Assembly: GCA_013375475.1 (NCBI GenBank) | Contig: JABXKD010000017.1 | Coordinates: forward strand, 1 to 49,166 | Reading direction: 5' to 3' | DNA: 49,166 nucleotides | Source: Promethearchaeota archaeon | GTDB taxonomy: Archaea; Asgardarchaeota; Lokiarchaeia; Sigyniarchaeales; SOKP01 | In this document: piece after piece, positions 11,090-49,166 of the stretch | Numbering within the stretch: position 1 is the stretch's first letter | Layout: the number at the start of each line of letters is the position of its first letter | Position numbers and translations under genes: made by a program | Notes under the pieces: generated by a model | Told to the model about the DNA's origin: nothing | The model's database searches: none | Seen by the model: the letters and a program-made list of their open reading frames with translations, nothing else

Positions 11090-11283
11090 ATTTTTCATGG
11101 TCTTTATTAGGTTTTTCTATTAATTTTATATATATATTCTCTGATTAAACGGTAAAGTCGGGTTTATTCTAACTTCTACTTATATTATTTAACTATATAG
11201 ATTCTATATACTATGGCGAAATCACTTAAAACAACTGAAAAACTTACAATATTAAAGAGAAAGGAGAAGATTTTAGATTAATT

Positions 11284-11442: not shown

Positions 11443-11456
11443 TGGTGAAATTTAAT

Positions 11457-11621: not shown

Positions 11622-11800
11622 TATTTTTTAGAAATTTAGTTAATTAAACTCATTTTGAGAACAGTTTTTTATTTTTGCGTGTTATTTTACTAAAATTTTT
11701 TCTAGATGGAATTAAAATTCTTTAATATAGTTTAAAATTTAATATGCATTAAAACACCTTATAGAAAAATCGGTTTTTTAAGAAATGGAGATGAGAAAAT

Positions 11801-12607: not shown

Positions 12608-12609
12608 TA

Positions 12610-20253: not shown

Positions 20254-21213
20254 CTAATATTCAATATTCATCTTTTTAACATAATCGAAGGCGGAATAAG
20301 CTGCAATTACCCCTTCTGCTACCCCAGTTATAGCCTGTTTAAATGGTGCGTCCGCAACGTCGCCAGCAGCGAATACTCCAGGTACGTTTGTTTCTGACGT
20401 TCTATTAATAATAATTTCATCTTTATTATTTGTTTTTATACCTATGTGTTTTGCTAGATCTGAGTTAGGATTAGACCCTACTTCAATAAAAACACCATCT
20501 ATTTCAAATTCTGTGCCATTATCGAAAATGACTGCCCTAACATTATTATCCCCTTTAATCTCTACGATATTGGTTCTATAAATGATCTCAATTTTTTGAT
20601 TTGCCTTTACTCTTTTTTTATTTATAGGTTCGGCACGTATTTCTTCTCCTCGATATATGATATACACTTTTTTTACATTTTGAGATAAAAATAACGCTTC
20701 CTTTGCAGCAGAATCACTTCCACCAATCACACATACGGTTTTATCTTTATAAAATGGGCCGTCACATGTAGCGCAATAGGAAACGCCTTTTCCAGCAAAT
20801 TCCTCTTCACCGGTGACGCCTAACTTCTTCCTCTCCGATCCTGTAGCTATAACTACACTTTTTGCTTTAAACTTTTGAAAAAACGAGTGAAGAATGAAGT
20901 AATCACTAGTTTTCTCTATACTTCGAATTTCGTCCGTTATGTAAGGAATGTGCAAGGAATTCATGTGATCCTTAAACATTTCCATCAAACCTTGACCGCT
21001 TGTAGAGGTAATTCCGGGATAATTTTCTACAAGATGAGTTGTTGCGATTAAACCTCCAAAAATTTTACCTATGACTAATACATCTAATGCAAATCGAGCA
21101 GCATAGATTGCACAACCTATTGCAGTTGGACCACCGCCCAAAACAATAAGATCGTAGGTCTTTTCTGGATCAATATCTTCCATTTCTATATTATACATCC
21201 GTAAATCCTCCAT
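20254..21213 (-). CDS. trxB: Thioredoxin-disulfide reductase (low-Mr TrxR)
   Basis: GGGP FAD motif, [21 protein letters not shown] and [11 protein letters not shown]...QAI. Confidence 0.92.
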   Translation of the reverse strand: [319 protein letters not shown]

Positions 21214-21245: not shown

Positions 21246-21899
21246 TCATTTAGTCTTATTAATGAGTTCATATAGAAGCTCTTCAGCAGTAATATCTCCT
21301 ATTAGCTGCTTATCTTCATTAATTATTAATGTTGGAACAGTCGTAACATTATATTTTTCACTAATATCCGGATGAGCCATAATGTCAATTACATCTATCT
21401 GCAATTTTCCCTCTGATGCCAACGCGAACTGACTGCAAATCGATATAATTGTAGAACAATAAGCACAATAATCAGTAATTAATACTTTTATAACATTAGG
21501 GCTAATTTTATTCAGATTCTCATTTATAACATTCTTATAATAATTAGAAGATCCAGTAAGCACCATTAGTGCCTGTACAAATGGTTGAATTTTTGCTGCT
21601 GTAGGAACAGCTAAATAACGAATAATCACTTGATCTAAATCGTTAGTCATTAAAATTACAGGTACGTCTTGAATGTCATATTTTTTAATAAGAGTTGGTT
21701 TTGTTTCATACCTATGTTCTTCAATTTTAAGTAGCCCGTTAGAGGCTTTCTGATAGATATCCAAAACATCCAACATTTTTACTGATTCTTGGAGATTTTT
21801 CGATGATGTAAAGATCTTTAAAGTTACTGGCTTATTTAACTTTCCAATCTCCTCTTGAATCATTTTTTTATAAACATATGATATCGGCAATCTTTTCAA
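21246..21899 (-). CDS. Protein-disulfide oxidoreductase (two Trx folds; only the C-terminal CAYC retained)
   Basis: Paralog of the two upstream PDOs; CAYC and cis-Pro TVP; TTG start. Confidence 0.82.
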   Translation of the reverse strand: MKRLPISYVYKKMIQEEIGKLNKPVTLKIFTSSKNLQESVKMLDVLDIYQKASNGLLKIEEHRYETKPTLIKKYDIQDVPVILMTNDLDQVIIRYLAVPTAAKIQPFVQALMVLTGSSNYYKNVINENLNKISPNVIKVLITDYCAYCSTIISICSQFALASEGKLQIDVIDIMAHPDISEKYNVTTVPTLIINEDKQLIGDITAEELLYELINKTK

Positions 21900-22026
21900 C
21901 TCTTCAATAGACTATCTAAAAGCTTAATAATTTCTTACTCAGTATAAAAATAAAAAATATAAAAATTCTTCCTTACAGTTTTTATGACTAGTTTTTTAGA
22001 GCTGATTTCTAAATATTTAATTTAAA

Positions 22027-22710
22027 TTAGTACTGAACTCTAATGTTCCCCCCAATGAGCGATCTTAATATTTCATTTGCTCCAACCATCCCAACGAGCG
22101 TTTTTGAATCGTTTATAACAGTATAAGGCACCCCTGCAGCGTCATAATACTGACCTATGTCGGGATTCGCACTAATATCAATGATTACGGTTCTAATCTT
22201 CCCTTCAGAAGCAAGGGCAAATTGGTTTACTGTAGATACAACACTAGGACAGTATGGACACGTTTCTGTTATCATTACTTTGATAGTTGATGGTTCAATT
22301 CGATCGAGGTTTTGTTTTATTGTGGCTTCGTAATAATTCGGTGCTCCTGCAAATGTGAATAATGATTGGACAAATGGTTGGATTTCACCTCCTCGTGGAG
22401 CTGCTAAATAACGAATTAATTCTCTACCATCGTTATTAACAAATAAGATTGTTGGTACCCTCTGAATATCATAGCGTTTAGCGAACTCAGGATTATTGTC
22501 TATTGAGAGCTCTTCTATCGTCAATAACCCATGTGAATTTTCTTCATAAATTCTAAGGAGAGACATAAATTGGCCGCAATCCATACAAGCTTTAATTTTA
22601 CTCCCATCTACTTCCGTTCTTTGGGACGTAAAAACCTTTAATCTCACGGGTTTATTGAGTTTTGCCATCTCTCTTTTAATAATTTCCCTATATTTATTAT
22701 CTTCAGACAA
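22027..22710 (-). CDS. Protein-disulfide oxidoreductase (PDO / AhpF N-terminal-like)
   Basis: CMDC and CPYC, RVP and GVP cis-Pro loops, IRY...PxGxE; GAGGTG SD before the TTG. Confidence 0.88.
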   Translation of the reverse strand: MSEDNKYREIIKREMAKLNKPVRLKVFTSQRTEVDGSKIKACMDCGQFMSLLRIYEENSHGLLTIEELSIDNNPEFAKRYDIQRVPTILFVNNDGRELIRYLAAPRGGEIQPFVQSLFTFAGAPNYYEATIKQNLDRIEPSTIKVMITETCPYCPSVVSTVNQFALASEGKIRTVIIDISANPDIGQYYDAAGVPYTVINDSKTLVGMVGANEILRSLIGGNIRVQY

Positions 22711-22735
22711 TCAAAAACACCTCATAACGTGTAGA

Positions 22736-23431
22736 TTAAGCATACATTCCTCCAAAATCTCTTTGACCTTTTGTTAATTTATCTAACAAATCTTGTGGAG
22801 TAAACATTCCAACTATTCTTTCGCTCTCGTTTACAACAGTTAGTGGAACTCCTTGAACTTCATACTTTCTTGCGATGTCAGGATTTAAGCTAACATCAAT
22901 AACTTCTGCCGTTATTTTACCCTTAGATACTATTGCGAACAAAGTTAAAACTGGAACGGTCGCTGGACAATACGGGCAGGTTGGAGTTATGAATATCTTC
23001 ATCTCTGATTTATCGATCTTCTTTAAGTGAGTTAAAATTTGATCTGTATAACTAGGTCTAATACCAGAGAAATGTTGTATACTGCTTAAAAAAGGGTCAA
23101 ATTCAGATCCTGTAGGGTAAGCTGAATATCGGATGATTTCCTTCCCTTTGTCATTGATGAATAATATAGCTGGGATTCGAGTCACGTTATATTTTATTGC
23201 TTCTTCTGGACTTTCTTCGATAGATATCTCTTCGGCACTAAACTTTCCGTTTGATAATTCTTCAAGCGAATTCAACAAATTATACGTGCCCTCACAAGCA
23301 ATGCAAGTCCTTTTTTTCGAACCGTCATCCAAGGTTTTAAAATCGGTAAATAGCTTCAACACTACTTTAGCTTTTAATTTTGCCAGTTCTCTCTTAATTT
23401 TATCAATATCCTTTTTAGGAAAAATCATCAA
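22736..23431 (-). CDS. Protein-disulfide oxidoreductase (PDO / AhpF N-terminal-like)
   Basis: CIAC and TPTCPYCP, IRY...PTGSEF, VQGVP; GGTGA SD. Confidence 0.9.
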   Translation of the reverse strand: MMIFPKKDIDKIKRELAKLKAKVVLKLFTDFKTLDDGSKKRTCIACEGTYNLLNSLEELSNGKFSAEEISIEESPEEAIKYNVTRIPAILFINDKGKEIIRYSAYPTGSEFDPFLSSIQHFSGIRPSYTDQILTHLKKIDKSEMKIFITPTCPYCPATVPVLTLFAIVSKGKITAEVIDVSLNPDIARKYEVQGVPLTVVNESERIVGMFTPQDLLDKLTKGQRDFGGMYA

Positions 23432-23577: not shown

Positions 23578-24576
23578 CTATTCTATTAATAATTCTCCCA
23601 TGTCAACGAGTTTGTGTTTAGATCTTTGCTTTTTTCCAAAGAATTTTAATATCCAATACGCATCAGGGCAATATGTGGTAATATAACTTTTGCTATCCGC
23701 AGTTTCTGAATTAATATCTTCATTATCCTTAAATTCTTTCATTCTCTTAATTGCTATCATTTCAGAGATATCTGTTCTTAATTGATGCCCAACGCCTCCT
23801 CCACAACAGTTATGTGGGATAGGCAAAACATTATATCCACTATCTTCGTATATCTGTTTTAACTCCTCTTCTATACCCAGAAATTCTATATATTTTAAAG
23901 GGCAAGCGTGTTGAATAATTAGATTCCCTTTATTTTTTCTCACTCGTGGTGTTAAATATTCTGTAAAATATTCTATCTTAATACCTAACTCTTGATAGTG
24001 CTTTTTAAATACCATATAGCAACTCGGGCACACTGTTATGATTTTTTCAAATCCCATTTCGATAAAAAGCGTTTTATTTCTCTCTATTAGAATATTATAA
24101 GTATTAAGCTCTCCAGTACATAGAATTGGGTAACCACAGCATATTTCTTTTTCTAAAACATTAAAATCTACATTTTTACTTAACAAATACTTAGCTATGT
24201 TTTCACCATATTTCGGAGTTTTAACGGTAGTAAAACAACCAAAGTATAACAGAGTTTTACTTTTTAGATTTATACCATCGATAGCTTTAATGCGACTCTT
24301 ATTTAATTTAAATGGAGTTCCATATTTTTTAAGAACTTCAATTTGTTCCTTTAAACCTTCAATCTTATTTCCATCTTTTAGAAATTTTTGTTTTAACAGA
24401 AAACGCTCGTAATGCGTACCGCAAGCTCCACAATGAACGCAATTGTATAGCCTTAGATAGTCTCCTTGATTGAACTTATAATTTTCTTTAGTTTCTAATA
24501 ATTTTATCACTTCTTCATTTTCGATGAAGTGATCTGGGTCGACATCTCGGCAAGAACATTTATATTCTCTTTTCAT
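23578..24576 (-). CDS. CCG-domain Fe-S protein (HdrB/HdrD/GlpC-like)
   Basis: CVHCGAC, YFGC, EICCG, CPSC, HAC, NCCGGG, CPDA. Confidence 0.85.
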   Translation of the reverse strand: MKREYKCSCRDVDPDHFIENEEVIKLLETKENYKFNQGDYLRLYNCVHCGACGTHYERFLLKQKFLKDGNKIEGLKEQIEVLKKYGTPFKLNKSRIKAIDGINLKSKTLLYFGCFTTVKTPKYGENIAKYLLSKNVDFNVLEKEICCGYPILCTGELNTYNILIERNKTLFIEMGFEKIITVCPSCYMVFKKHYQELGIKIEYFTEYLTPRVRKNKGNLIIQHACPLKYIEFLGIEEELKQIYEDSGYNVLPIPHNCCGGGVGHQLRTDISEMIAIKRMKEFKDNEDINSETADSKSYITTYCPDAYWILKFFGKKQRSKHKLVDMGELLIE

Positions 24577-24585
24577 ATCACATGC

Positions 24586-25569
24586 CTATAGTAGTAATTC
24601 AAATAGATCTTTAGCTTTTGGACTTATTTTGCATAATTTGCTATACCTTGCTAAAATCCACCAACAACTCGGACAGTATGTTGTCGAAAAATCCCCTCCA
24701 GCTGTACCGAAATCGCTCATTCTTTTATTTGCAACTTTATCAATAACATCAGTTCGATGCATATAACCAAGACCACCACCGCAACACCAATGAGGTATAT
24801 CTAATACTTCATAGCCACTTTTTTCTAAAACATTATTTACTAGTTTATCAACCCCCTTCTTGTCGCGGTTCATCAGTTGGCAAAGATGTTGCACTCCTAT
24901 CTTTCCCGATTTTTTAACATCAGAGGGCTTCAAATAATCAGATATGTATTTAAATTCGGTATTCGAATCCATTGAAGGTTTATAATATTTATTAAAAAGA
25001 AAATAGCACGCAGGGCATAGACAGATTACTTTCTTGAATTCTTTGAAAATTTCGATGTTTTCCTTTTTACAAATTTCAAATTCGTTTTTACAACCTGAAG
25101 CGAACCAAGGCCATCCACAACATATTTCCTTATCTAAGATTGTAAAATCCACTTTATGGTTAAGTAAATATTCAAGTGCATGCTCTGTATATCTTGGAAT
25201 CCTAATTGTCGAAAGACAGCCCATATAAAAAAGGGTATCAGATTCGGTAGGAATTCCTTCAGGTCTTCTAATTCGCATCTTATTAGATGGATAGGGCGTT
25301 CGATATTTATTGAAACACTCTATCATCTCATCAAGCCCATCAACTGTATTCCCTTCCTCGAGATATTTTTGTTTTAAGAGTAAACGCTCTTCTTCTGTTT
25401 CACATTCACCGCAATGAACGCAATTGTAAAGTTTGTAATAATCATTTTGCACAAACTTAACATTATCTCCACTTTTGATTAAATTTCTTACTTCTTCATC
25501 GCTCAAATAATTATCAGGGTCAACTTCTTCGGTAGGATAATTTTTTCTACCTTTAAATCTCTCTTTCAT
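24586..25569 (-). CDS. CCG-domain Fe-S protein (HdrB/HdrD/GlpC-like)
   Basis: CVHCGEC, YMGC, EICCG, CPAC, HLC, WCCGGG, CPSC. ATG at 25569 follows an AGGTGG SD. Confidence 0.85.
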   Translation of the reverse strand: MKERFKGRKNYPTEEVDPDNYLSDEEVRNLIKSGDNVKFVQNDYYKLYNCVHCGECETEEERLLLKQKYLEEGNTVDGLDEMIECFNKYRTPYPSNKMRIRRPEGIPTESDTLFYMGCLSTIRIPRYTEHALEYLLNHKVDFTILDKEICCGWPWFASGCKNEFEICKKENIEIFKEFKKVICLCPACYFLFNKYYKPSMDSNTEFKYISDYLKPSDVKKSGKIGVQHLCQLMNRDKKGVDKLVNNVLEKSGYEVLDIPHWCCGGGLGYMHRTDVIDKVANKRMSDFGTAGGDFSTTYCPSCWWILARYSKLCKISPKAKDLFELLL

Positions 25570-25795
25570 TGTATCCACCTAAAGTTTGAAATTGAAAATC
25601 TTTATTAAAAATTTGGGTTTCGGTTTAAAAGCATTATAAGGGAAATTATACTTAGTTCAAATTTAAAGGATTTGTTAATTTAAGCTTTCTGAATTTAACG
25701 AAATTGGAGCCTTAACTAAACTAACTTTAATCGACTAACTTTTTATTTTTTTATAAATATAAGAAAAAAAGTAATTAGAAACTCCTAATATTAAT

Positions 25796-26073: not shown

Positions 26074-26436
26074 TTACTTAAAATGATCCATAACTGCCTT
26101 TTCCTTTTCAAAAGGGCGTCTTTCCGGAACATTAACAAATTCAGCGTTTATTGTTTCATAAAAATCTAATCGTAGGTACAAATTACAATAACACGCTCCA
26201 AATTCTTTTACATCATCGGGTGCGTAATCACAAGGACAAATAAGATCTCTATCTAATTCTCTATTTCCTGAAGCAAGACGGCATGGACAAGATTGATAAC
26301 CATAATATTTCTTGTTATCTACTAACCCATTTATTAAGTCATTCAATGGAACTTGGTCCTTATTTAGAATCCAATTGTTTTTCTGACTAACCATTCCAAT
26401 ATACTCTTTCATACCTTCGGTGGTTTCCATGTCCAT
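26074..26436 (-). CDS. Ferredoxin:thioredoxin reductase catalytic-subunit-like protein (FTR/FDR)
   Basis: CPC...CPC...CYC motifs and VPERRP. ATG at 26436 follows GGAGGT, next to the glutaredoxin stop. Confidence 0.92.
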   Translation of the reverse strand: MDMETTEGMKEYIGMVSQKNNWILNKDQVPLNDLINGLVDNKKYYGYQSCPCRLASGNRELDRDLICPCDYAPDDVKEFGACYCNLYLRLDFYETINAEFVNVPERRPFEKEKAVMDHFK

Positions 26437-26437
26437 T

Positions 26438-26755
26438 TTAATTACCTCCAAGTTTGATTAATTCTTCATATTTGCCAGGATTATAACCTACAACAAAGTC
26501 GTCATCCCATACTACAAACGGATAAGAAATTCTTTCTGGTTTATAAGTTTCCCTTAAAAATTGTAATATTTGTGATTTTTCACTCATATCAATCCTATCA
26601 ACATCTACATATCGATATTTTATACCTCTATCATTTAGAAAAGTTTTGCATTTCTTACACCACATGCAAGTTGAGAGGGTAAAGATGGTAACGTTATGTG
26701 CGTCCTTTTCCCCTTTAACTTCTTGCGCTAATCTTTCGATAAATTCTGGGAACAT
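26438..26755 (-). CDS. Glutaredoxin, methanoredoxin-like
   Basis: TLSTCMWCKK, YVDVD, ISYP and VVGY; adjacent to the FTR-like gene. Confidence 0.88.
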   Translation of the reverse strand: MFPEFIERLAQEVKGEKDAHNVTIFTLSTCMWCKKCKTFLNDRGIKYRYVDVDRIDMSEKSQILQFLRETYKPERISYPFVVWDDDFVVGYNPGKYEELIKLGGN

Positions 26756-27424: not shown

Positions 27425-28465
27425 ATGCCAAAAGAGGTCATCCTAGCGGTATCATATTTTGATACTACTCTCGGACCCACTACTTTACATTGTAGTTCCC
27501 CATTGAATACTCAGGATCATCCCGATTTAGGTAAAATTCTGGAATTCACTGAAGAAGGAACGTTTATATTTACTTTTAGAAAATTTCAAACAATAAATCA
27601 TATTTTTTATATTGACTCAAACCTTGCGCGAGGTGGAAAAGAATTCCTAATGATAACTTACATGATCAGAGCGGCTTACTTCAAAGACGAAATTACAGAT
27701 GTTTACAATTATTTGTTATCTAAAACTCCTGACCTCGAATCTTACGCTTTAGAGCTCAAAAATATTCGAGAAATTACAGAAGTATTACATAGTTATAAAA
27801 ATCATATAAATAAAAAAGAAACTCTTAGTGAAGCACCGAATAAATTTAAAAAACAATTCTTTAAGCTCTTCAACAAGTATCTAGAAAAAATGACCCCTCA
27901 TCTAGATTTATCTACTCATTTATTAGATAAAGGAAATTTAAAAAAGATTTATATTTTTGGTCCTAGAAACGCAGGAAAAACGGAACTCGTTAAAAACTTG
28001 GAGGTTATACAGTTCCTACAATATAAAAATAACAATATGAAGAGGGATTTATCTAGTAAAATTTACGACTTCATAATTGATAACATCGAAGTTTTGACCT
28101 ACGAATGTGTTGATGAGGGTCCAGATGGCGAAAAGACTAAAATGTATGAAGATTGTATAGATAACGCTCAAGGCTTTATTTTAATCTTTAATGCTTCCAG
28201 TAAAGATTCTTTTAAAGAAGCAATCGAAATGTTTCAGTTGGTATTAAATAGATGTCAAGATAAGGAGAATACCCTTCCAATACTTATTATTGGTAATAAT
28301 TTTCACGATAAAGAAGAAATAACGCCTGAGATGATACTTGAGAACTTCGATATGAACGAATTAGCTGAGTGCGGACTATTAATCCAATCTTATTCCATTA
28401 ATGTTCTTAGCGAAAATGAAAAAATTATTGAAGCTATTCGCTGGCTTTTAAAACAAATAATTTAG
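27425..28465 (+). CDS. Longin-like domain fused to a degenerate Ras-like GTPase
   Basis: N-terminal AVSYFDTTLGP; P-loop GPRNAGKT; AQGFILIFN....SF; PILIIGNN. Confidence 0.72.
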   Translation: MPKEVILAVSYFDTTLGPTTLHCSSPLNTQDHPDLGKILEFTEEGTFIFTFRKFQTINHIFYIDSNLARGGKEFLMITYMIRAAYFKDEITDVYNYLLSKTPDLESYALELKNIREITEVLHSYKNHINKKETLSEAPNKFKKQFFKLFNKYLEKMTPHLDLSTHLLDKGNLKKIYIFGPRNAGKTELVKNLEVIQFLQYKNNNMKRDLSSKIYDFIIDNIEVLTYECVDEGPDGEKTKMYEDCIDNAQGFILIFNASSKDSFKEAIEMFQLVLNRCQDKENTLPILIIGNNFHDKEEITPEMILENFDMNELAECGLLIQSYSINVLSENEKIIEAIRWLLKQII

Positions 28466-32366: not shown

Positions 32367-33716
32367 ATGAAAGTTGTAATCGTAGGGAATAATGTCGCTG
32401 GAACATTTACAGCTCAGAATATTAGATATCTTAATGAAGATGTTGATATTGAAATATATACTCAAGAAAGCTATCCTTATTACACACGAGTCAATTTACC
32501 CGAATTAATCCCTGAAAAAGTTCAAATTGATGATTTAATCGTTTTTAAAGATGACTGGTATAAGAATAATAATATAAAACTAAACCTTAACTGTAAAGTG
32601 ATCAAAATTGAACCCGATCAAAAAAATCTCTTTATAGAAGGCCAAAGCAATCCTATTTCTTACGATAAATTAGTATTAGCATTAGGTAGCGTCCCTAATA
32701 TCCCTCCCATAAAAAATGCAAGAGAAATGGTCGGAAAAGGTGTGTTTACATTAAGAACCATTGATGATGCTTTAGAAATCAAGGAATACATTCAAAATGT
32801 CAAAGCGAAAAAGGCTCTTATTATAGGAGGGGGGCTACTCGGATTAGAATTGGCTAACCAAATTAAAAACGCTAATTTAGATACTACGGTCGTTGAATTT
32901 TTTCCACGTTTATTACCAAGGCAGCTAGACGACGAATGTAGTGGCATGTTAAAGAATGAAATTGAATCTAAAGGTATTAATGTAGTTTTAAATGCAACAA
33001 CTGAAGAAATCATGGGTAATGGAGCTGTCACTGGAATTAAGTTAAAAGATGGACAAAGATTTGATGCTGATATTGTTTTAATCCAAGCGGGAATTAGAGC
33101 TACCATCGATCTTGCACAAAACTCCGGATTAGAAACCAATCGAGGCATCATAGTTGATGAATTCTTGGAGACAAGTAAAAAAAATATTTTTGCCGTAGGA
33201 GATTGCGTGGAATATAAAAATCAAACTTGGGGAATTATCCCAGCTTGCATGGAACAGTCAAAAATCGTCGCCGCATCTGTCTTGGGTTTAAAAAAGATAG
33301 AATACAAGGGAACTACACCAAAAAATACCTTAAAAATAGTAGGTATGGAATTAACTTCAATTGGAATTTTTGATCCCTCAAAAGAAGAAGGTGGGGGTTG
33401 GGACATTCTAAAAAGAGCAGATAAGAACGACTGTTGCTATCAGAAATTGATCTTGAAGGGTAATACTCTCAAAGGAGCTATCCTTTATGGAGACAACAAA
33501 GCTATGCCGTTTGTTTATAAAAAAATGGAGCAAGATGTTACCCGAGAAGAGCTTATGGATATTCTTGAGCTATATGTCTATATATGCTCTAATTGCGGAG
33601 CAGAATATGACGAGACAAAAAGGGAAATTCTATTCAAAGATTTACCTGATGATTGGAAATGTCCAAATTGTAAACACCCAAAAGAAGGTTTCAAAAAACA
33701 ACAACATAAAAAGTGA
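32367..33716 (+). CDS. NAD(P)H:rubredoxin oxidoreductase-like flavoprotein with a fused C-terminal rubredoxin
   Basis: FAD/NADH motifs YDKLVLA.GS, GGGLLGLE, IFAVGD; C-terminal CSNC...[13 protein letters not shown]. Confidence 0.9.
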   Translation: MKVVIVGNNVAGTFTAQNIRYLNEDVDIEIYTQESYPYYTRVNLPELIPEKVQIDDLIVFKDDWYKNNNIKLNLNCKVIKIEPDQKNLFIEGQSNPISYDKLVLALGSVPNIPPIKNAREMVGKGVFTLRTIDDALEIKEYIQNVKAKKALIIGGGLLGLELANQIKNANLDTTVVEFFPRLLPRQLDDECSGMLKNEIESKGINVVLNATTEEIMGNGAVTGIKLKDGQRFDADIVLIQAGIRATIDLAQNSGLETNRGIIVDEFLETSKKNIFAVGDCVEYKNQTWGIIPACMEQSKIVAASVLGLKKIEYKGTTPKNTLKIVGMELTSIGIFDPSKEEGGGWDILKRADKNDCCYQKLILKGNTLKGAILYGDNKAMPFVYKKMEQDVTREELMDILELYVYICSNCGAEYDETKREILFKDLPDDWKCPNCKHPKEGFKKQQHKK

Positions 33717-36640: not shown

Positions 36641-37852
36641 ATGTCAAGCTTAGAATTATTAAAAGATGTGTATTATGTTGGATATGTAGACTGGGAAGTA
36701 AGGAATTTTCATGGATATTCGACACATAAGGGTTCTTCTTATAATGCATATATTGTAAAAAGTGGAGATAAAACGATATTAATTGATACCGTAAAAAGGC
36801 AGTACTTCAAGTATTATTTAGAAAACATTCAATCGGTGTGTGATCCAAAAGATATTGATTATCTTATAATGAATCATATCGAACCAGATCATTCGGGGTC
36901 TTTTCCTTTAGTATTGAAGTATTTACCAAATGCTGAGATTATTGCCTCTACAAAGGGGGTTGAAATTTTAGAACAACATTATCACGAAGAAGTAGATAAA
37001 AGTATTTTTGAAAAAATACGAGCAGTAAAAAACGGTGATACTTTAGATGTTGGAAATGGTAAAATTTTTACTTTTGTTCCTATTCCGATGATCCATTGGC
37101 CTGATTCGATGGTTTCTTTTATGAGTGACGAACATGGAAAAAATGTGTTATTTTCCAACGATGCCTTTGGGCAACATTTTGCTGCATCAAAACACTGGGA
37201 TGATGAAAATAAATTTTCAGAAGTAATGTGGGAAGCAGAAAAATATTATGCAAATATTTTGCTTCATTTATCTAACTTAATTGCTAAGACTCTCCCCGTC
37301 GTTGGAGCTTTACCGATAGATGTTATTTGTCCATCACATGGGGTGTGTTGGAGAAAGAATATCCCTGAAATCATAGAAGCTTATACAAAATGGTCAAGCG
37401 GAGAAATTGAAGAAAATTCAGCTGTGATTATCTATGACAGCATGTGGGAAAGCACAACCAAGATAGCGAAAGAATTATACCACGAGATTTGGCGTAGGGG
37501 AATTCCTGTAAAAAGGTTCAATTTAACTTCTTCTGATTATAGTGATGTAATAACTGAAGCAATGAAAGCTAAAGCGATTATTATTGGAAGTCCAACTTTA
37601 AATCGGGGACTATTTCCTTCCGTGGCAGAATATTTGTGTTACCAGAAAGGCTTAAAACCAATGAACAAGGTTGGTTTAGCTTTTGGATCGTATGGTTGGA
37701 GCAGAGGTGCGGTTAGAGCTATAATCAGTGAAATGGAAGCCACTGGAATAGCGATGTTGGACGATTCAATTGATATACAATTCGTTCCAAAACCTAGTGA
37801 TTTAAACTTTAAGGAAATTGTAGACAAATTAGTTAAAAAAATGGAGGTATAA
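36641..37852 (+). CDS. fprA: Flavodiiron protein (FprA/ROO type, class A)
   Basis: FHGY....GSSYNAY, HIEPDH, HWPD, SNDAFG, PSHG; flavodoxin domain SMWEST, GSPT, FGSYGW. Confidence 0.95.
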   Translation: MSSLELLKDVYYVGYVDWEVRNFHGYSTHKGSSYNAYIVKSGDKTILIDTVKRQYFKYYLENIQSVCDPKDIDYLIMNHIEPDHSGSFPLVLKYLPNAEIIASTKGVEILEQHYHEEVDKSIFEKIRAVKNGDTLDVGNGKIFTFVPIPMIHWPDSMVSFMSDEHGKNVLFSNDAFGQHFAASKHWDDENKFSEVMWEAEKYYANILLHLSNLIAKTLPVVGALPIDVICPSHGVCWRKNIPEIIEAYTKWSSGEIEENSAVIIYDSMWESTTKIAKELYHEIWRRGIPVKRFNLTSSDYSDVITEAMKAKAIIIGSPTLNRGLFPSVAEYLCYQKGLKPMNKVGLAFGSYGWSRGAVRAIISEMEATGIAMLDDSIDIQFVPKPSDLNFKEIVDKLVKKMEV

Positions 37853-42318: not shown

Positions 42319-42708
42319 TTATTCGGATTTCCACAATCCATGAAGATTACAATATTCCCTAGCAACGAGACCTGTAGTGTCGCCTACTACAAAGGTTGCT
42401 TCAGGCTTCATTCCAGGAGCTAACATCTGCCTCTTATAGCAGTTGTCTTTGCAGATTAATTCAATCCACATGATGTAATGTTCATTCGTCATTGGATGGG
42501 GTGTTCCCATAGAGATTCCAACATCTACAGTGACTTTATTGCCATCAATTGTTATTTTAGGAACATGCTTTTCGCCCTTCCAATCAGCTGTTTTCGCTTC
42601 CATCAAATTCATCGGTTGTCCACAACATATAGTCTCAGGGACTCCTGGATTAAGAATTTCGACGACTTTACCGCACACTTCACATTTGTAAATTGTTTTT
42701 TGTTTCAT
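42319..42708 (-). CDS. dfx: Desulfoferrodoxin (2Fe superoxide reductase)
   Basis: YKCEVCG...CCG; EKHVP, HPM..EHYI.WI, YCNLHGLW. Confidence 0.95.
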   Translation of the reverse strand: MKQKTIYKCEVCGKVVEILNPGVPETICCGQPMNLMEAKTADWKGEKHVPKITIDGNKVTVDVGISMGTPHPMTNEHYIMWIELICKDNCYKRQMLAPGMKPEATFVVGDTTGLVAREYCNLHGLWKSE

Positions 42709-42808: not shown

Positions 42809-43393
42809 TTAGAATTCTTCGCACCTTTTTCTGAAAAAATCTCTTGAATGTGAACAGCTTGGACACTCAAAATCGTCTGGAAGCTCATCTAATTCAACTT
42901 GGTAGCCACATTCGAGACATATCCATACTACTTTTTCTCCTCGTTTGAAGAAAATGTCGTCTCCTACTAATTTTAGTAATTTACCATATCTTTCTGAATG
43001 GTGTTTTTCTGCGAATGCAATGGCTCTAAATCTCTTAGCTATATCAAGAAGTCCTTCCTTTTCCGCGATGTCAGCGAAACCCGGATACATCTCCTTCCAT
43101 TCGTAATCTTCACCCTCAATAGCTGATTTCAGATTTTCTTCTGTAGTTCCATAAGTGGTAGGGCCAGTAGCTTTTATTTTTAACTCTTCAAAAGACTCTT
43201 TTTTTTTAAGATCTTGAAGCATTTTATAGTTCCAACCACCATGCTCTCTTTCTTGATTTGCAGTTTCTTCGAAAATTTGTGATATGAGAACATATCCTTC
43301 TTTTTTAGCGATTGAAGAAAACAAAGTATATCTATTTCGCGCTTGAGATTCTCCCAAGAATGCAGCAAATAAATTTTCAACTGTTTTTTTCAT
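42809..43393 (-). CDS. rbr: Rubrerythrin
   Basis: [17 protein letters not shown]...MY, EKHH..RY; C-terminal CLECG...CPSC. Confidence 0.95.
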
Positions 43394-43608: not shown

Positions 43609-44742
43609 ATGGATAAGAATAATATTATTCAAAATGTTGATGCTTGTATAGATTGCAAAACATGTATGGAATATTGTGATACCTTTATGGTATCAAATGA
43701 TGTATTAAAATCTCCGAACGGGAGATTAAAAATTGCTGAAAAGATATTTACAAATAAAGAAATATCTGAAGAAGAAATTATCGGATTATATACGTGTACT
43801 TTGTGCGCTTTATGTGATTTAGTTTGTCAACAAAATATTTTGATATCTGAAATAATTCATTCCTCTAAAATGGAATTAGTTGAGCAGAATAAAGCGCCTT
43901 TACCTATTCATAAAAAAATCATTAAAGATATTATGGAAAAGGATAATTCTGTAAATGGAAATCCAGACGAGCGCTTAGATTGGTTACCTGAAGAATATAG
44001 AGATGAAGAAGTTTACGAAAACAAAGATTCAGATACATTATTGTTTTTAGGATGTATGTCCTCCTTTCGGGTAAAAGAGAGTGCGAGCGCAGCTTATAAA
44101 ATCCTAAAGGAGTGTAATTACGATTTTAAGATTTTTAAAAGTGAACCTTGCTGTGGAGAATATATATATTCAGCAGGTAATTTAGATCTCTCCAAAAAAG
44201 TATTTCAAACGAATTTGGAACTCTTTAAATCTAATGGAATAAAAAATTTAATCGTTACTTGCGGTGGATGTCTATATGCTTTCGATAAAGTTTACCCTCT
44301 TTATTTGAAAGATTATGATATAAATGTAAGGCACATTATTGATATTATTTATGAATTAGAAAACAAGAAAAAAATTGACTTAACGCCTTTAAATAAATCC
44401 GTTACATATCACGATCCTTGCAGACTTGGAAGAAAATTTAAGAGCGGACCTCTATATACAGAACCTAGAGCGTTATTAAGAAAATGTGGAATAGAAGTAA
44501 AAGAGTTAGCAGAAGATCATAACGATTGTCCTTGTTGTGGGGCTGGATCTGGAATTAGAGGTGTTGATAGTAGTATTAGTATAAAAATTGGGAAAAAAAT
44601 ATTTGAAAAAACCCAAACTAAGGAGATCACATCATCTTGTCCATTATGCATTTTTAATTTTAGATATGTAAATTATAAAACTCAATCAGAAAAAGAAATT
44701 AAATACGTAACAGATTATGTTTTAGAATCCATTAAAAAGTAA
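43609..44742 (+). CDS. HdrD/GlpC-like Fe-S oxidoreductase (2x4Fe-4S plus 2 CCG domains)
   Basis: CIDCKTCMEYC, CTLCALCDLVC; FLGC, EPCCG, CGGC, YHDPC, CCGAG, CPLC. Confidence 0.9.
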   Translation: MDKNNIIQNVDACIDCKTCMEYCDTFMVSNDVLKSPNGRLKIAEKIFTNKEISEEEIIGLYTCTLCALCDLVCQQNILISEIIHSSKMELVEQNKAPLPIHKKIIKDIMEKDNSVNGNPDERLDWLPEEYRDEEVYENKDSDTLLFLGCMSSFRVKESASAAYKILKECNYDFKIFKSEPCCGEYIYSAGNLDLSKKVFQTNLELFKSNGIKNLIVTCGGCLYAFDKVYPLYLKDYDINVRHIIDIIYELENKKKIDLTPLNKSVTYHDPCRLGRKFKSGPLYTEPRALLRKCGIEVKELAEDHNDCPCCGAGSGIRGVDSSISIKIGKKIFEKTQTKEITSSCPLCIFNFRYVNYKTQSEKEIKYVTDYVLESIKK

Positions 44743-44767
44743 AGTGAAACTAATTATTTCTTTAAAA

Positions 44768-47155
44768 TTAATAGTTTGTGCTTTTAACACCACCATTTTC
44801 TACAGGATAACCACTTCTGTGCCACATTATCATTCCACCGGTTAAATTTCTGACGTCTTTGAAGCCTGCTCTAGCTAAGAGTTGAGCTGCCATCATCGAG
44901 CGCGATCCACTATGACAAATTACAACAATTTCCTCATCTTTATACTGTTCTAAAGCATCAATTTTGTGCATTAATTCGCCTAAGGGTATCAATTTGGAAT
45001 TTTTTATGTGTCCAGTTCTTCCCTTATACTCTTGTGGTGTTCTTACATCTATTAAAATTGTTGGAACCTCGCCTGAATCCATTCTCTCATATAGTTCATT
45101 CGCAGTTATATTTGATAAGGCAGGTGCTCCTATAGCTCTTATTTGTTTCCTAGTCTTTTTCTCAAGTTTCACTGGCGCTTCAATTTCTTCGCGTGTTGCA
45201 ATACCTTTTTCTAATGTGGCAACTAACTTTCCTTCTTCTTTTCCCAGCGTTAATAACTTAACAGCTTCATTTAATTTTGCGTATGCCTCAACACTGGCTT
45301 TAAATCCTGGATCTGTAGCATATATTTTTAACTTTTTATTCTCGGGCAACATTTCAAGAGATTTTATAAGAGCATTTAAAGGACCAGGACAAGCTAAGCC
45401 AGAAGCATCTATTTCGATATAGTCTTCGGTTATCTTGTGTTTTTTTTCAATAAATTCTTCTATTACTTCTTCGGATGCACCGCACTCAGCAGCTATTTCT
45501 TCAGTTGTAGCTTTAGCTGTTTTATAGAGTTTATATCCACCAGTTAAATTTTTAACTTGATATCCTTTTTGGATTAAGAACCTAGTAGCAAGGTAAGCTC
45601 TGAATCCTACTTCACAGAATAGATAAATATTCTTATTTTGTGGTATTTCATTCAGTCGATTTCTTAACTCTAAATCGCTTATATTTATTGCTCCCTCAAT
45701 AGTCCCAATTTCATATTCATCAGCTGTTCGAACATCGAGGATAATACTATTATTTGATTGTATTTTGGCTAATTCGTTCCAATGCCAGATAGGCATATCA
45801 CCTTTAAGCACATTTGATGCAACAAAACCAGCCATATTCACAGGATCTTTGGCAGAACCATACGGAGGTGCGTATGTAAGCTCAAGTTCCTCTAAATCAA
45901 AAACAGTTCCATCAAATTTCATAACGGTGGAAATTACATCAATTCTTTTTTCTGTTCCCGAGCCTCCTACTGCTTGTGCTCCAAGAATTCTTCCATTTGG
46001 ATTTTCAAAGATGAGTTTTAAAGTTATAGGCACTGCTCCAGGATAGTATCCAGCGTGGTTATTAGGATGAACATATATTTTTTCATATTTTAGTTCAGTT
46101 TTATTTAATTCTTTTTCATTTAATCCAACTGAAGAAACGGTTAAATCGAATACTTTGACGACAGAAGCACCTAACACTCCATTATACCTTGAGTTGCGCC
46201 CAGCTATGACATCAGCGACAATTCTACCTTGTTTATTAGCTGGTCCTGCTAATGGTACTCCAGTTGGTTTTTTTGTAACGAAATTTTTAATCTGAATGGC
46301 ATCTCCAACAGCAAATATTGAAGGATCAGATGTCCTCATTTGCTCATCTACAATAATATGACCTTTAGGACCAATATCTAATCCTGCTTCTTCAGCTAAC
46401 TGATTCTCAGGTTTTACGCCAATAGCTAGTATTATCATATCTGTTTTAATTCTCCCCCCACTCTTAGTGATTACATAATTGAATCCTTCGCTGCTAACTT
46501 CAAAAGAATCTACTGGATCTTCTAACTGTAAACAAACGCCGTTTAGGAGTAATTCTTGGTGCACGAACTGAGCAATTTCCTTATCTAAAGAAGCCATGAC
46601 TTGGTCAAGCATTTCCGTAACCTTTACTTTAATCCCACGATGCCTAAGATTTTCTGCCATTTCTAAGCCAATAAATCCTCCTCCGATCACTGTCGCATGT
46701 TTAACGTTATTCCTCTCTATATGAGATATAATTTTATTAGAATCGGGGATATTTCTTAAGGTAAAAACCGGAACATCGTTCATCCCTGTGAAAGGAGGAA
46801 CAATCGGAGATGCTCCAGGAGAAAGGATAAGATAATTGTAATCTAATTGTATTGTATTCCCGTCTTTTAAATTTTCAACGGTTATATTTTTATTAATTCT
46901 ATCAATGCTTTTTACTTCGTGGTTTATTTTAATATTTATATTAAATCGATCGAGAAATTTCTCTGGAGTCATAAGTTTTAACCGTGCTTCTTCTTTTATT
47001 ACCTGACCAACATAATAAGGTAAACCACAGTTTGCAAAAGAAACAAATGGGCCTCTTTCAAGGACAGTTATTTCTAAATCCTCTCTTAATCTTCTCAGTC
47101 TCGCGGCAGCTGAAGCTCCGCCAGCTACTCCACCAACTATGATTACTTTTTTCAT
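44768..47155 (-). CDS. CoA-disulfide/persulfide reductase fused to rhodanese, TusA and a second rhodanese
   Basis: GGVAGGA, SFANCGLP, GGGFIGLE, YAPP; rhodanese FCEVGFRA; TusA DASGLACPGP; rhodanese ICHSGSRS. Confidence 0.92.
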   Translation of the reverse strand: MKKVIIVGGVAGGASAAARLRRLREDLEITVLERGPFVSFANCGLPYYVGQVIKEEARLKLMTPEKFLDRFNINIKINHEVKSIDRINKNITVENLKDGNTIQLDYNYLILSPGASPIVPPFTGMNDVPVFTLRNIPDSNKIISHIERNNVKHATVIGGGFIGLEMAENLRHRGIKVKVTEMLDQVMASLDKEIAQFVHQELLLNGVCLQLEDPVDSFEVSSEGFNYVITKSGGRIKTDMIILAIGVKPENQLAEEAGLDIGPKGHIIVDEQMRTSDPSIFAVGDAIQIKNFVTKKPTGVPLAGPANKQGRIVADVIAGRNSRYNGVLGASVVKVFDLTVSSVGLNEKELNKTELKYEKIYVHPNNHAGYYPGAVPITLKLIFENPNGRILGAQAVGGSGTEKRIDVISTVMKFDGTVFDLEELELTYAPPYGSAKDPVNMAGFVASNVLKGDMPIWHWNELAKIQSNNSIILDVRTADEYEIGTIEGAINISDLELRNRLNEIPQNKNIYLFCEVGFRAYLATRFLIQKGYQVKNLTGGYKLYKTAKATTEEIAAECGASEEVIEEFIEKKHKITEDYIEIDASGLACPGPLNALIKSLEMLPENKKLKIYATDPGFKASVEAYAKLNEAVKLLTLGKEEGKLVATLEKGIATREEIEAPVKLEKKTRKQIRAIGAPALSNITANELYERMDSGEVPTILIDVRTPQEYKGRTGHIKNSKLIPLGELMHKIDALEQYKDEEIVVICHSGSRSMMAAQLLARAGFKDVRNLTGGMIMWHRSGYPVENGGVKSTNY

Positions 47156-47351
47156 TTTAGAATCTACTCATACATTTTTTTAGTTATATAATCACTACTT
47201 ATAATTTTCAAAATTCATTATTCCATTTAAAGAGCGTTCTTATGATGTATTGAATAATCTAAGAACTAAAAATTTACTTTTTTGAACTTGATAAAAACAA
47301 TAACGATTATAAAATACAAGTATAAAAAATAAGAAAATATATTGAAAAAAA

Positions 47352-48155
47352 TTAGCCTCTATAATCTAAAATGATTACGACATCCACGAAAAGCTCGTAA
47401 TTCTCGTCTTCGTCGTTGTCGTGTATTGTTACCTTTTCAACTTCGTCCAGTTCTCCGTGAACTTCGATAAGATCTGCTTCATGTAATATTTTAACATCCG
47501 AATGCTTAAGTTTCTTCCTTAATTCGACGTTACCGGGGATAGATTTAGCATTTGTTACTAAAATTACTCTTCCAGTGTATTCTGTTAATTTCATTGCGAG
47601 TTCTAAGGAAGCATCTCCCGAGTCAACTACAAGGATTCTTTTTTCTCTAAGTTCCTCCAAATCTGCTGGAACGATATCGTAAACTCCTTTTCCAAAAAAC
47701 TTTTCTATTCCTAATATCACTCGAACACCTATTTGACATGAAGTAGCAATTTCTACTTCTGGAGTCGTACCTAAGCGGTAATTATTAATTGCCGCTTGTA
47801 AAGCATCAGCTGCTAGATTCGAACAATGCATTTTAATCGGCGGAAGCCCGTCTAATTCATCAGCTACGTCTTGTCTCGATATTTTATAAGCTTCGTCAAG
47901 AGTCATTCCTTTTGCCATCTCAGTTATCATTGAAGATGTAGAAACTGCTGATCCACAACCAAATGTTTTAAATTTAATATCATCAATTATCTCCTCTCCG
48001 GCGTCATTTTTACCAACTTTTAAATAGATCCACATAAGATCTCCACAAACTGGATTCCCAACCTGACCGACCCCATCTGCATCTTCTATTTCACCCACAT
48101 TACGTGGATTTTTGAAATGATCTAAAACTTTATCTGAATATTGTGTAGATTTCAT
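47352..48155 (-). CDS. iscU: IscU/NifU Fe-S scaffold fused to a TrxR-like NAD(P)H-binding domain
   Basis: YS.KV.DHF.NPRNVG, GNPVCGD, FGCGSA, LPPIKMHCS; C-terminal ~125 aa aligns with the NADPH domain of the TrxB in this window. Confidence 0.9.
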   Translation of the reverse strand: MKSTQYSDKVLDHFKNPRNVGEIEDADGVGQVGNPVCGDLMWIYLKVGKNDAGEEIIDDIKFKTFGCGSAVSTSSMITEMAKGMTLDEAYKISRQDVADELDGLPPIKMHCSNLAADALQAAINNYRLGTTPEVEIATSCQIGVRVILGIEKFFGKGVYDIVPADLEELREKRILVVDSGDASLELAMKLTEYTGRVILVTNAKSIPGNVELRKKLKHSDVKILHEADLIEVHGELDEVEKVTIHDNDEDENYELFVDVVIILDYRG

Positions 48156-48159
48156 ATTA

Positions 48160-49166
48160 TTATTTCACCTCTTCATTTTTCTTGAAAAAATCAGAAGGCG
48201 TTAAAGGCGACAACTTTCTCAATCTTATTACTTGATCCGGTAATACTTCTAAAAGTTTATCTATGTCAGTTTCACGAGTTGTTCTACCCAAAGAAACTAA
48301 TAGACTTCCATGCGCTTCTTCGTGAAGAAGTCCCATAGCAATTAGTGTGTGGGATGGTTCTAATGTTTTTGAACTACACGCTGAACCAGTAGCGGCGGCA
48401 ATATTGTTTTCTTTTAGCGTAAGAATTAACGATTCTCCTTCAATATAATCAAATCTAAAATGTGCGTTGTGAGGGGTCCTTTTTTCAGGGTGCCCGTTTA
48501 AATACGATTTAGGGATTGTTTCTAAAACGTTTTTGATAAGTTTGTCTCTTAATTTTTTCAACTTCTCTGATTCAGTTGGCATTTCTTCTTTCATGATTTC
48601 AGCAGCTTTTGCAAATCCTACGATCCCTGGAATATTTTCTGAGCCTGACCTAAACCCTCTCTCTTGCCCGCCCCCAATTATTATAGGATTTACTCTCACT
48701 CCTTTTTTCAGGTAAAGTGCTCCAACTCCCCTCGGTCCATAAATATCGTTTGATGAGAGTGTGATAAGATCGATTGGAACTTTTTGAACGTCAATAGGAA
48801 GAACGCTTTCGCTTGCTACTGCGTCAGTATGGAATAAAATTCCCTTTTCTTGAGCAAGTTTACTTATCTCAGCTGTTGGTTGTACTGAACCAACTTCATT
48901 ACTCGCAGTAGATATTGAAATGAGAATCGTCTCGTCGGTAATATACCTTTCAAGTTTGTCTAATCGGACAATACCAAACCGATCTACAGGAACTCTGCTA
49001 AATCGAAATCCTTCTTTTTCAAGATACTTGCCAATATTTAAGATCGAGATGTGCTCTATTTCAGAAATAATTATATGATTCCCTTTTTTTTTTTGTCTCA
49101 TTGCAGCTCCGATTATACCTAAATTATTCGATTCTGTCGCTCCTGAAGTAAAAATGATATCGGCAC
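48160..49166 (-). CDS. iscS: IscS/NifS-family cysteine desulfurase homolog (5'-truncated; PLP Lys replaced by Asp)
   Basis: Frame stays open to the window edge (IFTSGATESNN); IEH, NEVG..QP, GGGQE...RSG, TGSACSS; SSNDIYGPRG in place of S.HK.YGPKG. Confidence 0.92.
   Translation of the reverse strand, partial: ADIIFTSGATESNNLGIIGAAMRQKKKGNHIIISEIEHISILNIGKYLEKEGFRFSRVPVDRFGIVRLDKLERYITDETILISISTASNEVGSVQPTAEISKLAQEKGILFHTDAVASESVLPIDVQKVPIDLITLSSNDIYGPRGVGALYLKKGVRVNPIIIGGGQERGFRSGSENIPGIVGFAKAAEIMKEEMPTESEKLKKLRDKLIKNVLETIPKSYLNGHPEKRTPHNAHFRFDYIEGESLILTLKENNIAAATGSACSSKTLEPSHTLIAMGLLHEEAHGSLLVSLGRTTRETDIDKLLEVLPDQVIRLRKLSPLTPSDFFKKNEEVK

Follow-up and report, generated by a model that had tools for sequence, protein, structure and literature searches.

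The window analysed here is a 49,166-nucleotide stretch of a Promethearchaeota genome (contig JABXKD010000017.1 of assembly GCA_013375475.1; labelled G000, of the Loki-type family f1), and its locus of interest (positions 44768-49166) is filled by three minus-strand open reading frames: an iscS gene without the codon for the lysine that binds pyridoxal 5'-phosphate (PLP), an iscU gene extended by a domain resembling thioredoxin reductase (TrxR), and a gene for a fusion of CoADR, rhodanese (Rhd), TusA and a second rhodanese. A preliminary description of this DNA had placed three co-oriented genes here, and the arrangement was borne out for all of them. The window ends where its contig (C88) ends, within iscS, and only the 3' part of a cassette with the order tusA-(dsrE)-iscS-iscU in relatives is visible in it. 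On balance, we read this cassette as a probable persulfide-relay module for iron–sulfur (Fe–S) clusters that would work independently of PLP in an oxidative-stress island, with the CoADR fusion as a separate neighbour. The features of the locus are as follows.

48160..49166, minus strand: lysine-less iscS, 3' 334 codons, reading frame open beyond 49164, 5' end cut by the contig end
47352..48155, minus strand: two-domain iscU, 267 amino acids, start 4 nucleotides after the iscS stop
47775..48155, minus strand: N-terminal scaffold domain of IscU, residues 1-127, with Cys37, Asp39, Cys67, His110 and Cys111
47355..47735, minus strand: C-terminal domain of IscU, residues 141-267, TrxR NADPH-domain fold without its motifs, conserved acidic hairpin
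47156-47351: spacer between iscU and the CoADR gene, 196 nucleotides, GC 0.27 in the covering 300-nucleotide segment
47345..47351, minus strand: run of seven T directly after the iscU stop, a putative terminator of archaeal type, recurring in aligned loci
47226..47231, minus strand: TTTAAA box about 70 nucleotides before the CoADR ATG, TATA-like, a putative promoter
44768..47155, minus strand: CoADR-Rhd-TusA-Rhd fusion, 795 amino acids, with Pyr_redox_2, Pyr_redox_dim, Rhodanese, TusA and Rhodanese domains

Two sets of loci were used for comparison: 20 fetched Asgard loci with the iscS-iscU pair, and the best 80 of the 572 places confirmed in a profile scan for this IscS over one genome per species. 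The two sets overlap by four contigs, and the 80 were selected for their closeness to a single IscS query, such that the constancy of the cassette described below is valid for this IscS subfamily only.

The IscS of the window has the class-V aminotransferase fold (Pfam match to PF00266 positions 63-371, E = 5e-59), and its best solved relative is Archaeoglobus fulgidus IscS2 (4eb5_A, E = 6e-117; 1p3w_B, E = 2.5e-83), with which it has the motif SSNDIYGP in common. The canonical paralogue of the same genome carries SAHKLYGP there, ordinary IscS proteins have S-G-H-K, and entry 4r5f carries SSNKIYGP, with the lysine. When the window copy and 20 orthologues (21 copies of this type) were aligned with two canonical paralogues, the PLP site proved altered at three positions in 21 of 21 Asgard copies (Lys to Asp, the neighbouring His to Asn, and Gln to Ala, turning DAVQ into DAVA), with SSND in place of the SAHK or SGHK of other IscS proteins; the canonical paralogues keep the HK. 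The absence of the PLP lysine, claimed earlier for the window copy, extends to every Asgard copy of this type that was compared. The catalytic cysteine loop is kept (GSACSSKT in the window copy, GSAC(S/T)SKT in 21 of 21 copies). A full-length orthologue from the window's nearest relative (locus L014; 396 amino acids, 89.5% identical) scored 478.1 bits on TIGR03402, below the cut-off of 530.75, which the canonical copy of the genome passes with 532.2 bits. Among the 80 further loci the motif S[S/A]ND was read in 78. One Methanobacteriota-labelled locus (L108) has SSNA, with Ala instead of Asp at the lysine position, and in L056 the motif is unreadable in the extracted sequence.

On sequence grounds, the protein is a lysine-less IscS of the A. 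fulgidus type, with Asp for Lys, the cysteine loop kept and IscU adjacent. In the available text of the A. fulgidus work, the IscS with the SSND motif is reported to lack desulfurase activity, and its cysteine to ligate a [2Fe-2S] cluster on IscU (PMC7585200), which fits the earlier proposal that the IscS of the window acts as scaffold and ligand donor. It is very likely that this IscS is not a PLP desulfurase, which makes a supply of sulfur by a route other than PLP chemistry plausible. Continued desulfurase activity, through non-covalently bound PLP or another base, would make the module an ordinary ISC or MIS pair; the fully kept fold and cysteine loop and the 478 bits on TIGR03402 are what this account would predict, but we consider it very improbable in view of the three exchanges in 21 of 21 copies, a score below a cut-off that the canonical copy passes and the reported inactivity of its A. 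fulgidus counterpart, in which the motif is identical.

The iscU gene encodes two domains. NifU_N (PF01592) spans residues 5-127 (E = 8e-47), the solved relatives of this part are 7c8m_A (E = 1.3e-52) and 4eb5_C (E = 1.3e-48), and the TIGR03419 score of 196 bits exceeds the cut-off of 188 for IscU; C37, D39, C67, H110 and C111, which make up the IscU cluster site, are invariant in 19 sequences. The remainder, for which an oxidoreductase origin had been suggested before, is TrxR-like by three approaches: a Pyr_redox match at residues 173-246 (E = 1e-5), alignment with the NADPH domain of thioredoxin reductase (4a5l residues 110-228), and a Foldseek search that returned TrxR NADPH domains at E values of 1e-10 to 1e-9 (2zbw_B, 1.7e-10; root-mean-square deviation 1.8-2.7 Å over about 120 columns). 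In the predicted structure the C-terminal domain is separate (predicted local distance difference test score, pLDDT, about 85-92) and joined by a disordered linker (residues 133-144), with a predicted template modelling score (pTM) of 0.50 for the whole, which leaves the mutual orientation of both domains undefined. On TIGR01292 the protein reaches 45 bits against a cut-off of 343, with only residues 131-262 aligned.

The hallmark motifs of thioredoxin reductases are a redox-active CxxC, and GxGxxG/A and HRR for NADPH. The C-terminal domain of IscU has none of these, nor an FAD domain, and its dinucleotide loop is degenerate, reading (D/H/Y)(T/S/R)G(D/E)xS in 93 of 93 copies. We rejected a role as NAD(P)H binder or reductase because the motifs are lost in all 93. 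What the domain retains is R173, R196, E249, Y253 and D258, together with an acidic hairpin (H-D-x-D-E-D-E-x-Y-E-L-F-V-D) whose YELFVD ending is nearly invariant. A search of 1.84 billion representatives placed only IscU fusions, or pieces of such fusions, nearest to the domain; true TrxRs came next, at 25-34% identity. Candidate stand-alone versions of the domain (matches of 150-200 amino acids) were singletons on contigs of 1-2.6 kb or had NifU_N ends, and were treated as fragments.

Complex prediction for the C-terminal domain with an IscS dimer gave a score of 0.55 (runs 0.62, 0.55 and 0.00; best control 0.00), with partner pLDDT of at least 80 and runs agreeing in at least 0% of contacts. 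In the calibration, 58 of 80 solved complexes attained the mark used, as did 2 of 110 mismatched pairs, and passes at scores of 0.60 or below comprise only 7 of the 80 solved complexes but both passing mismatches; the prediction departed from the calibration in using custom alignments and a 2+1 chain set. Modelling lends weak support to docking of this domain on the IscS dimer. The recurrence of these features in relatives (Lys to Asp in 21 of 21 copies, S[S/A]ND in 78 of 80 loci and the degenerate dinucleotide loop in 93 of 93 copies) indicates that what is seen in the window is not due to chance.

In relatives, the pair does not stand alone. In all 20 fetched Asgard loci iscS and iscU stand side by side on the same strand, a TusA gene (80-98 amino acids) lies directly upstream on the same strand, and a DsrE gene (118-124 amino acids) usually stands between tusA and iscS, as identified with Pfam (PF01206, E = 1e-17 to 1e-24; PF02635, E = 1e-10 to 1e-16). 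By tblastn, tusA was upstream in 20 of these loci and dsrE in 16, and the carrier cysteines are conserved in 14 of 14 TusA sequences (CPxP) and 11 of 11 DsrE sequences. For the window itself, another contig of its assembly (C32) starts with the first 37 codons of a tusA orthologue (89% identical), after which comes the corrinoid-protein gene that also stands next to tusA in L014; because of this match, we take C32 to carry on from the window across a gap in the assembly. Among those of the best 80 of 572 loci with room for the respective genes, tusA was found in 72 of 72 and dsrE in 55 of 72, an adjacent IscU N-terminal domain in 72 of 74 and the TrxR-like C-terminal domain in 71 of 74 (exceptions: L058, L065 and L096). 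L065 has a two-domain iscU about 2.4 kb downstream of iscS, non-adjacent, and no iscU lies within the 1.4 kb available downstream in L058. The iscS/iscU junction is bridged by two contigs from RNA libraries of relatives, 90-99% alike (X17 record 23 and X16 record 15), libraries that can also hold DNA. TusA and DsrE are better candidates for sulfur delivery than the CoADR fusion, and would be encoded upstream, beyond the window end.

The genome also has other means of Fe–S assembly, for which the preliminary description had asked: a lysine-bearing NifS/IscS (SAHKLYGP; TIGR03402, 532 bits, above the cut-off), a plain IscU of 118 amino acids 3.4 kb from it, SufC beside a weak SufB/SmsB-like gene, and a distant SufS-like protein. 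Because a canonical IscS, a plain IscU and a SufC/SufB-like pair are present, the cassette appears as a second Fe–S system on which the genome does not depend. Such a housekeeping set would free the cassette for something other than de novo assembly, namely sulfur trafficking or cluster holding (for example, for tRNA or cofactor thiolation), cluster storage or repair, or redox sensing with IscU as carrier. We judge this unlikely: TusA and DsrE are best known, from the portions of the literature available to us, from tRNA thiolation and dissimilatory sulfur relays (PMC2854127, PMC4175335, PMC11094781), the stress-island context described below would suit such a role, and TtuA-like PP-loop genes lie beside the cassette in L027, but the last is true of one locus only, no exchange occurs among 19 sequences at the five cluster-ligand and catalytic positions of IscU, and the IscS cysteine loop is invariant. 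In L027 (G183:C9, positions 9073-12678, genus g8), the cassette stands beside two PP-loop ATPase genes (one of them TtuA-like), a canonical lysine-bearing iscS and a plain iscU.

The CoADR fusion aligns end to end over residues 1-548 with 3icr_A (E = 1e-182), 3nta_A, the CoA-persulfide reductase 8a56_A and 6pfz_D (E range, 1e-182 to 3e-106), a set that includes Npsr and the Npsr of A. fulgidus. It has the N-terminal active-site cysteine, the FAD, NAD(P)H and dimerization domains and the C-terminal rhodanese cysteine that define the CoADR-RHD/Npsr/CoAPR enzymes, and all four of its sulfur-carrier cysteines, already described as intact, are conserved in 10 of 10 orthologues (Cys43 of the active site, Cys514, Cys589 of TusA and Cys747 of the second rhodanese). 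The four-domain form occurs mostly in Asgard-labelled records. A. fulgidus Npsr is described, in the available text, as an NAD(P)H-dependent persulfide/polysulfide reductase that yields H2S (PMC7969121). Because characterized relatives reduce persulfides and polysulfide to H2S, we read the fusion as a persulfide reductase of the island, predicted to depend on NAD(P)H and coenzyme A (CoA), with an added TusA-rhodanese relay.

Between iscU and this gene lies the AT-rich DNA of about 200 bp noted in the preliminary description, here delimited to 196 nucleotides. A TTTAAA, TTTATA or TTTACA box stands in register about 55-70 nucleotides before the fusion ATG in six of six aligned loci, which also have the T run after the iscU stop; the two elements look like an archaeal terminator and a TATA box. 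The spacer RNA folded no better than shuffled sequences (z = -0.08), a scan for bacterial promoters and terminators returned no excess (13 sites against 14.7 expected), and Rfam matches within 44000-49166 were all sub-threshold, including a snoRNA at E = 0.095. One of these, V_AS7 (a Vibrio antisense RNA), lies at 46965-47133 on the plus strand, antisense to the 5' coding part of the CoADR gene, and with 39 bits against a gathering score of 90 it probably reflects coding-sequence similarity. Contigs from the RNA libraries include pieces of the CoADR gene and of iscS/iscU, and none of those listed bridges 47156-47351, although such libraries can hold DNA and the uncovered part is uninformative.

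We next consider whether the fusion is a partner of the cassette, as the preliminary description had proposed by making it the route by which sulfide or polysulfide sulfur reaches IscU. Counting matches at E ≤ 1e-80 as presence, the fusion was found in 53 of 68 other f1 genomes, 4 of 7 in f2 (open frames of 833-840 amino acids), 20 of 28 in f7 (mostly two-domain forms of about 570 amino acids), 4 of 7 in f22 and 1 of 1 in f26. At the same threshold it was found in 0 of 76 genomes of the Thorarchaeota-like family f9 although iscS-iscU is present there, genera g4, g5 and g8 of f1 yielded no match either although they too have the cassette, and it is absent from all 39 bacteria-labelled loci. In the closed f2 genome G213 it lies 423 kb from iscU on the opposite strand. 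Both genes occur in 52 f1 genomes, and comparing coordinates by hand placed the fusion downstream of iscU, on the same strand and within 2.5 kb, in 48 of the 52 (gap below 400 nucleotides in 28); the exceptions are G219 (9.1 kb apart), G083 and G168 (on another contig) and G065 (iscU at a contig edge). In two loci of genus g2 (L017 and L019) an opposite-strand HdrD-like gene intervenes between iscU and the fusion, with an OsmC gene in the same place in L017. As a control, 23 Loki-family loci (21 distinct) were examined for their flanking genes: 14 retain a corrinoid protein, 17 an ABC ATPase and 16 the fusion. Because unrelated flanking genes are kept about as often, the linkage of iscU and the fusion within f1 cannot be told from shared ancestry. 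The expected synteny held for iscS-iscU in all 20 Asgard loci and for the fusion in 48 of the 52 f1 genomes with both genes, whereas outside f1 the fusion was unlinked or not found, the outcome that the preliminary description had named as refuting; a standing as conserved partner of the cassette is not supported.

The proposal could still apply to this lineage alone, with the fusion as the dedicated supplier of the lysine-less IscS and the two-domain IscU, loading polysulfide or persulfide sulfur onto its rhodanese and TusA domains and handing sulfur or sulfide to the scaffold. The linkage in 48 of 52 f1 genomes and the four conserved cysteines are in keeping with this, as is the presence of the fusion downstream of 7 of 7 dsrE-less f1 cassettes compared with 7 of 14 with dsrE, kin that are not independent. 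Three Deltaproteobacteria-labelled loci (L075, L080 and L085) also encode a Pyr_redox_2 flavoprotein just ahead of tusA, but the two that were scanned with Pfam (L075 and L080) lack rhodanese and TusA domains. With cassettes lacking the fusion in f9, g4, g5, g8 and bacteria, the unlinked copy in G213, the T run and TATA-like box in the spacer, the opposite-strand gene in L017 and L019, unrelated flanks kept about as often, and characterized relatives that, as far as their description is available, consume persulfide to H2S, the opposite of feeding a relay (PMC7969121), we regard a dedicated supplier as improbable. Because of this distribution, the putative terminator and promoter, the intervening gene and the flanking-gene control, we lean towards the fusion being a separately transcribed, family-restricted neighbour that the cassette does not require and that may share a pool of sulfane sulfur with it.

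The cassette itself reaches far beyond the family of the window. A hand count of the rows gave full-length two-domain IscU matches in 63 of 69 f1 genomes including G000, and such matches also occur in f2, f4 and many f9 genomes. Of the best 80 of 572 further loci, 39 are bacteria-labelled (Deltaproteobacteria, among them the cultured strain NaphS2, Syntrophaceae and Smithella; WOR-3, one of these loci being on a 1.9-Mb chromosome; Aminicenantes; Zixibacteria; Stahlbacteria; Clostridia; and Actinobacteria) and 2 are from other archaea (Thermoplasmata and Methanobacteriota), and one locus (L128) is 88-97% identical to the window across the genes. Thor-type IscS proteins are 62-71% identical to bacterial copies, about as close as to Loki copies (59-65%), and bacterial phylum labels are intermixed in a quick unrooted IscS tree (in which one row, L119, was badly extracted and has a branch length of 10). 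To us, these two observations suggest that the cassette has moved laterally as a whole among Asgard archaea and numerous anaerobic bacteria; no donor or direction is claimed. Two records stand apart from their labels. In family f24, which otherwise gives weak IscU matches only, a short contig encodes a two-domain IscU of 76% identity (G136:C463:1677-2474), and this contig may be mis-binned; in the Thorarchaeota-labelled L116, the cassette genes are 73-79% identical to Loki-family copies and branch with them in the quick tree, and the record label or bin may be off.

The setting of the cassette in the window is a redox and oxygen-defence island spanning 20-49 kb, with the fusion and the cassette at its end. 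In addition to two FMN reductases among the genes from 20 kb on, it comprises the following.

43609..44742, plus strand: HdrD/GlpC-like protein (two CCG domains and a 4Fe-4S dicluster), convergent with the CoADR gene; in L017 and L019 its orthologue separates iscU from CoADR
42809..43393, minus strand: rubrerythrin, recurs beside the cassette
42319..42708, minus strand: desulfoferrodoxin (superoxide reductase type), recurs beside the cassette
36641-37852: flavodiiron protein
32367-33716: rubredoxin reductase-rubredoxin fusion
26074-26755: FTR-catalytic-like protein overlapping a glutaredoxin, a pair that also recurs beside bacterial cassettes
23578-25578: two CCG proteins
21246-23431: three thioredoxin-like proteins
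20254-21213: TrxR

Similar genes recur around the cassette in 36 non-Asgard loci: rubrerythrin-type proteins (two clusters, in 11 and 7 loci), desulfoferrodoxin (8), FTR-like-rubredoxin (8), a Fur-family regulator (8), ODP/flavodiiron-like proteins (8) and glutaredoxin (7). A heavy-metal P-type ATPase (HMA, often with YHS) is encoded directly downstream of iscU in 10 of the 36, and together with the Fur neighbours suggests a link to copper or iron stress; the ATPase loci are L076, L080, L082, L088, L098, L104 and four more bacterial loci. After removal of duplicates and of loci under 9 kb, 13 of the 25 Loki-type loci and 15 of the 26 bacterial ones had at least one nearby gene for rubrerythrin, desulfoferrodoxin, a flavodiiron protein, an FTR-like protein or a flavin reductase-rubredoxin; the stress-island setting is common to Loki-type archaea and bacteria, and not universal. 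Elsewhere, the window encodes an FtsZ/tubulin-family protein and two Ras/Arf-family small GTPases (5872-7014, 13026-13799 and 27425-28465), which are usual for Asgard genomes.

From these observations, a working model can be assembled. The lysine-less IscS would have lost PLP chemistry and kept its mobile cysteine loop; sulfane sulfur would arrive as persulfide on the CPxP cysteine of TusA, often pass through DsrE, and move to the IscS loop cysteine and on to the two-domain IscU. After the A. fulgidus IscS-IscU complex, IscS would serve both as relay and as donor of the fourth cluster ligand. The C-terminal domain of IscU would be a cofactor-less relic of the TrxR NADPH domain, with the acidic hairpin most likely forming a docking module. 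The cassette would serve to rebuild Fe–S clusters under oxidative stress, a role proposed because it often stands among oxygen-defence genes in Loki-type archaea and bacteria, and the fusion would draw on NAD(P)H to turn sulfane sulfur, whether bound to CoA, to protein or as polysulfide, into sulfide.

We hold this relay module, with the fusion as a separate neighbour, to be somewhat more probable than its negation, and several points weigh against it. The flow of sulfur from TusA to IscS would reverse the direction in E. coli (IscS to TusA), a reversal that follows only from the loss of the PLP lysine. dsrE is missing in L014, the window's nearest relative, and in three others of the 20 Asgard loci. 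Within f1, the linkage of the fusion and its recurrence beside dsrE-less cassettes, related as these genomes are, leave room for a lineage-specific functional tie between the two. The constancy of the cassette is that of one subfamily, represented by the 80 loci closest to the query. Support from the complex prediction is weak, and by the tool's own account a pass at such a score is more often wrong than right. Oxygen-defence genes were in the flanks of 0 of 19 Thor-type loci, and the link to stress is not general. A broader formulation, which we put forward tentatively and regard as rather doubtful, would make the cassette a horizontally mobile, PLP-free device of anaerobes: a dead desulfurase would act as relay hub between TusA/DsrE and IscU, the acidic TrxR-relic domain of IscU would dock in place of partners of the frataxin, IscX or ferredoxin type, clusters would be rebuilt after oxygen or copper stress, and Loki-type archaea would have recruited the fusion to tune the sulfane-sulfur pool.

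Lysine-less IscS and CoADR-rhodanese enzymes are already known. Our literature search, with subscription journals mostly outside it and supplements unopened, found no description of the tusA-dsrE-iscS-iscU operon, of the two-domain IscU-TrxR-like fusion or of their spread across domains. A preprint on an Asgard archaeon shows, in the text available, TusA- and DsrE-bound persulfides in a figure legend dealing with Hdr-linked sulfite and thiosulfate reduction, with no mention there of Fe–S assembly. The source of sulfur for Fe–S clusters in anaerobes without an active desulfurase is presented as an open question for the SMS and MIS systems in the available part of PMC13066941, and persulfide carriers, a lysine-less IscS and a modified IscU in one conserved operon would offer a concrete and testable route. 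Its occurrence in the cultured strain NaphS2 makes the system testable outside hard-to-grow archaea. The oddity of A. fulgidus proves to be part of a widespread system, laterally shared on our reading, and, for Asgard biology, this ISC-like pair is placed in an oxygen-defence island and not in housekeeping.

Among known systems, the CoADR-RHD/Npsr/CoA-persulfide reductases (3icr, 3nta, 8a56 and 6pfz) have the first 548 residues of the fusion, Cys43 and the rhodanese cysteine in common with it, and the window protein adds a TusA domain (Cys589) and a second rhodanese (Cys747). Low-Mr thioredoxin reductase shares the NADPH-domain fold with the C-terminal domain of IscU, which, unlike it, lacks the FAD domain, CxxC, GxGxxG/A and HRR. 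The E. coli complexes IscS-TusA and IscS-IscU (3lvj and 3lvl) involve the same three families, and in the available text IscS is the docking platform for TusA and IscU, its loop cysteine exchanging persulfide with both (PMC2854127); in E. coli, however, the sulfur originates from cysteine through PLP chemistry and is passed by IscS to TusA, whereas here the PLP site is lost and flow from TusA to IscS is proposed. MIS (MisS-MisU), the minimal iron-sulfur system of archaea and anaerobes, is a two-gene core of IscS-like and IscU-like proteins without chaperones, ferredoxin or A-type carrier, beside an SMS-like SufBC; as far as the available text goes, it is described without further components and with a desulfurase (PMC13066941), whereas the cassette joins an IscS-like and IscU-like pair, its IscS lysine-less and its IscU two-domain, to two sulfur-carrier genes, tusA and dsrE. 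Closest of all in its IscS is the A. fulgidus IscS2-IscU pair (4eb5 and 4eb7), with the identical SSNDIYGP, the cysteine loop kept and an IscU partner (E = 6e-117 for IscS and 1.3e-48 for IscU). In the solved structure, the A. fulgidus IscU chain (153 residues) corresponds to the N-terminal domain only, and the IscU described here adds a TrxR-like domain of 127 residues; unlike that solved pair, whose genomic neighbourhood was outside the comparison, the cassette has tusA, and usually dsrE, before its iscS.

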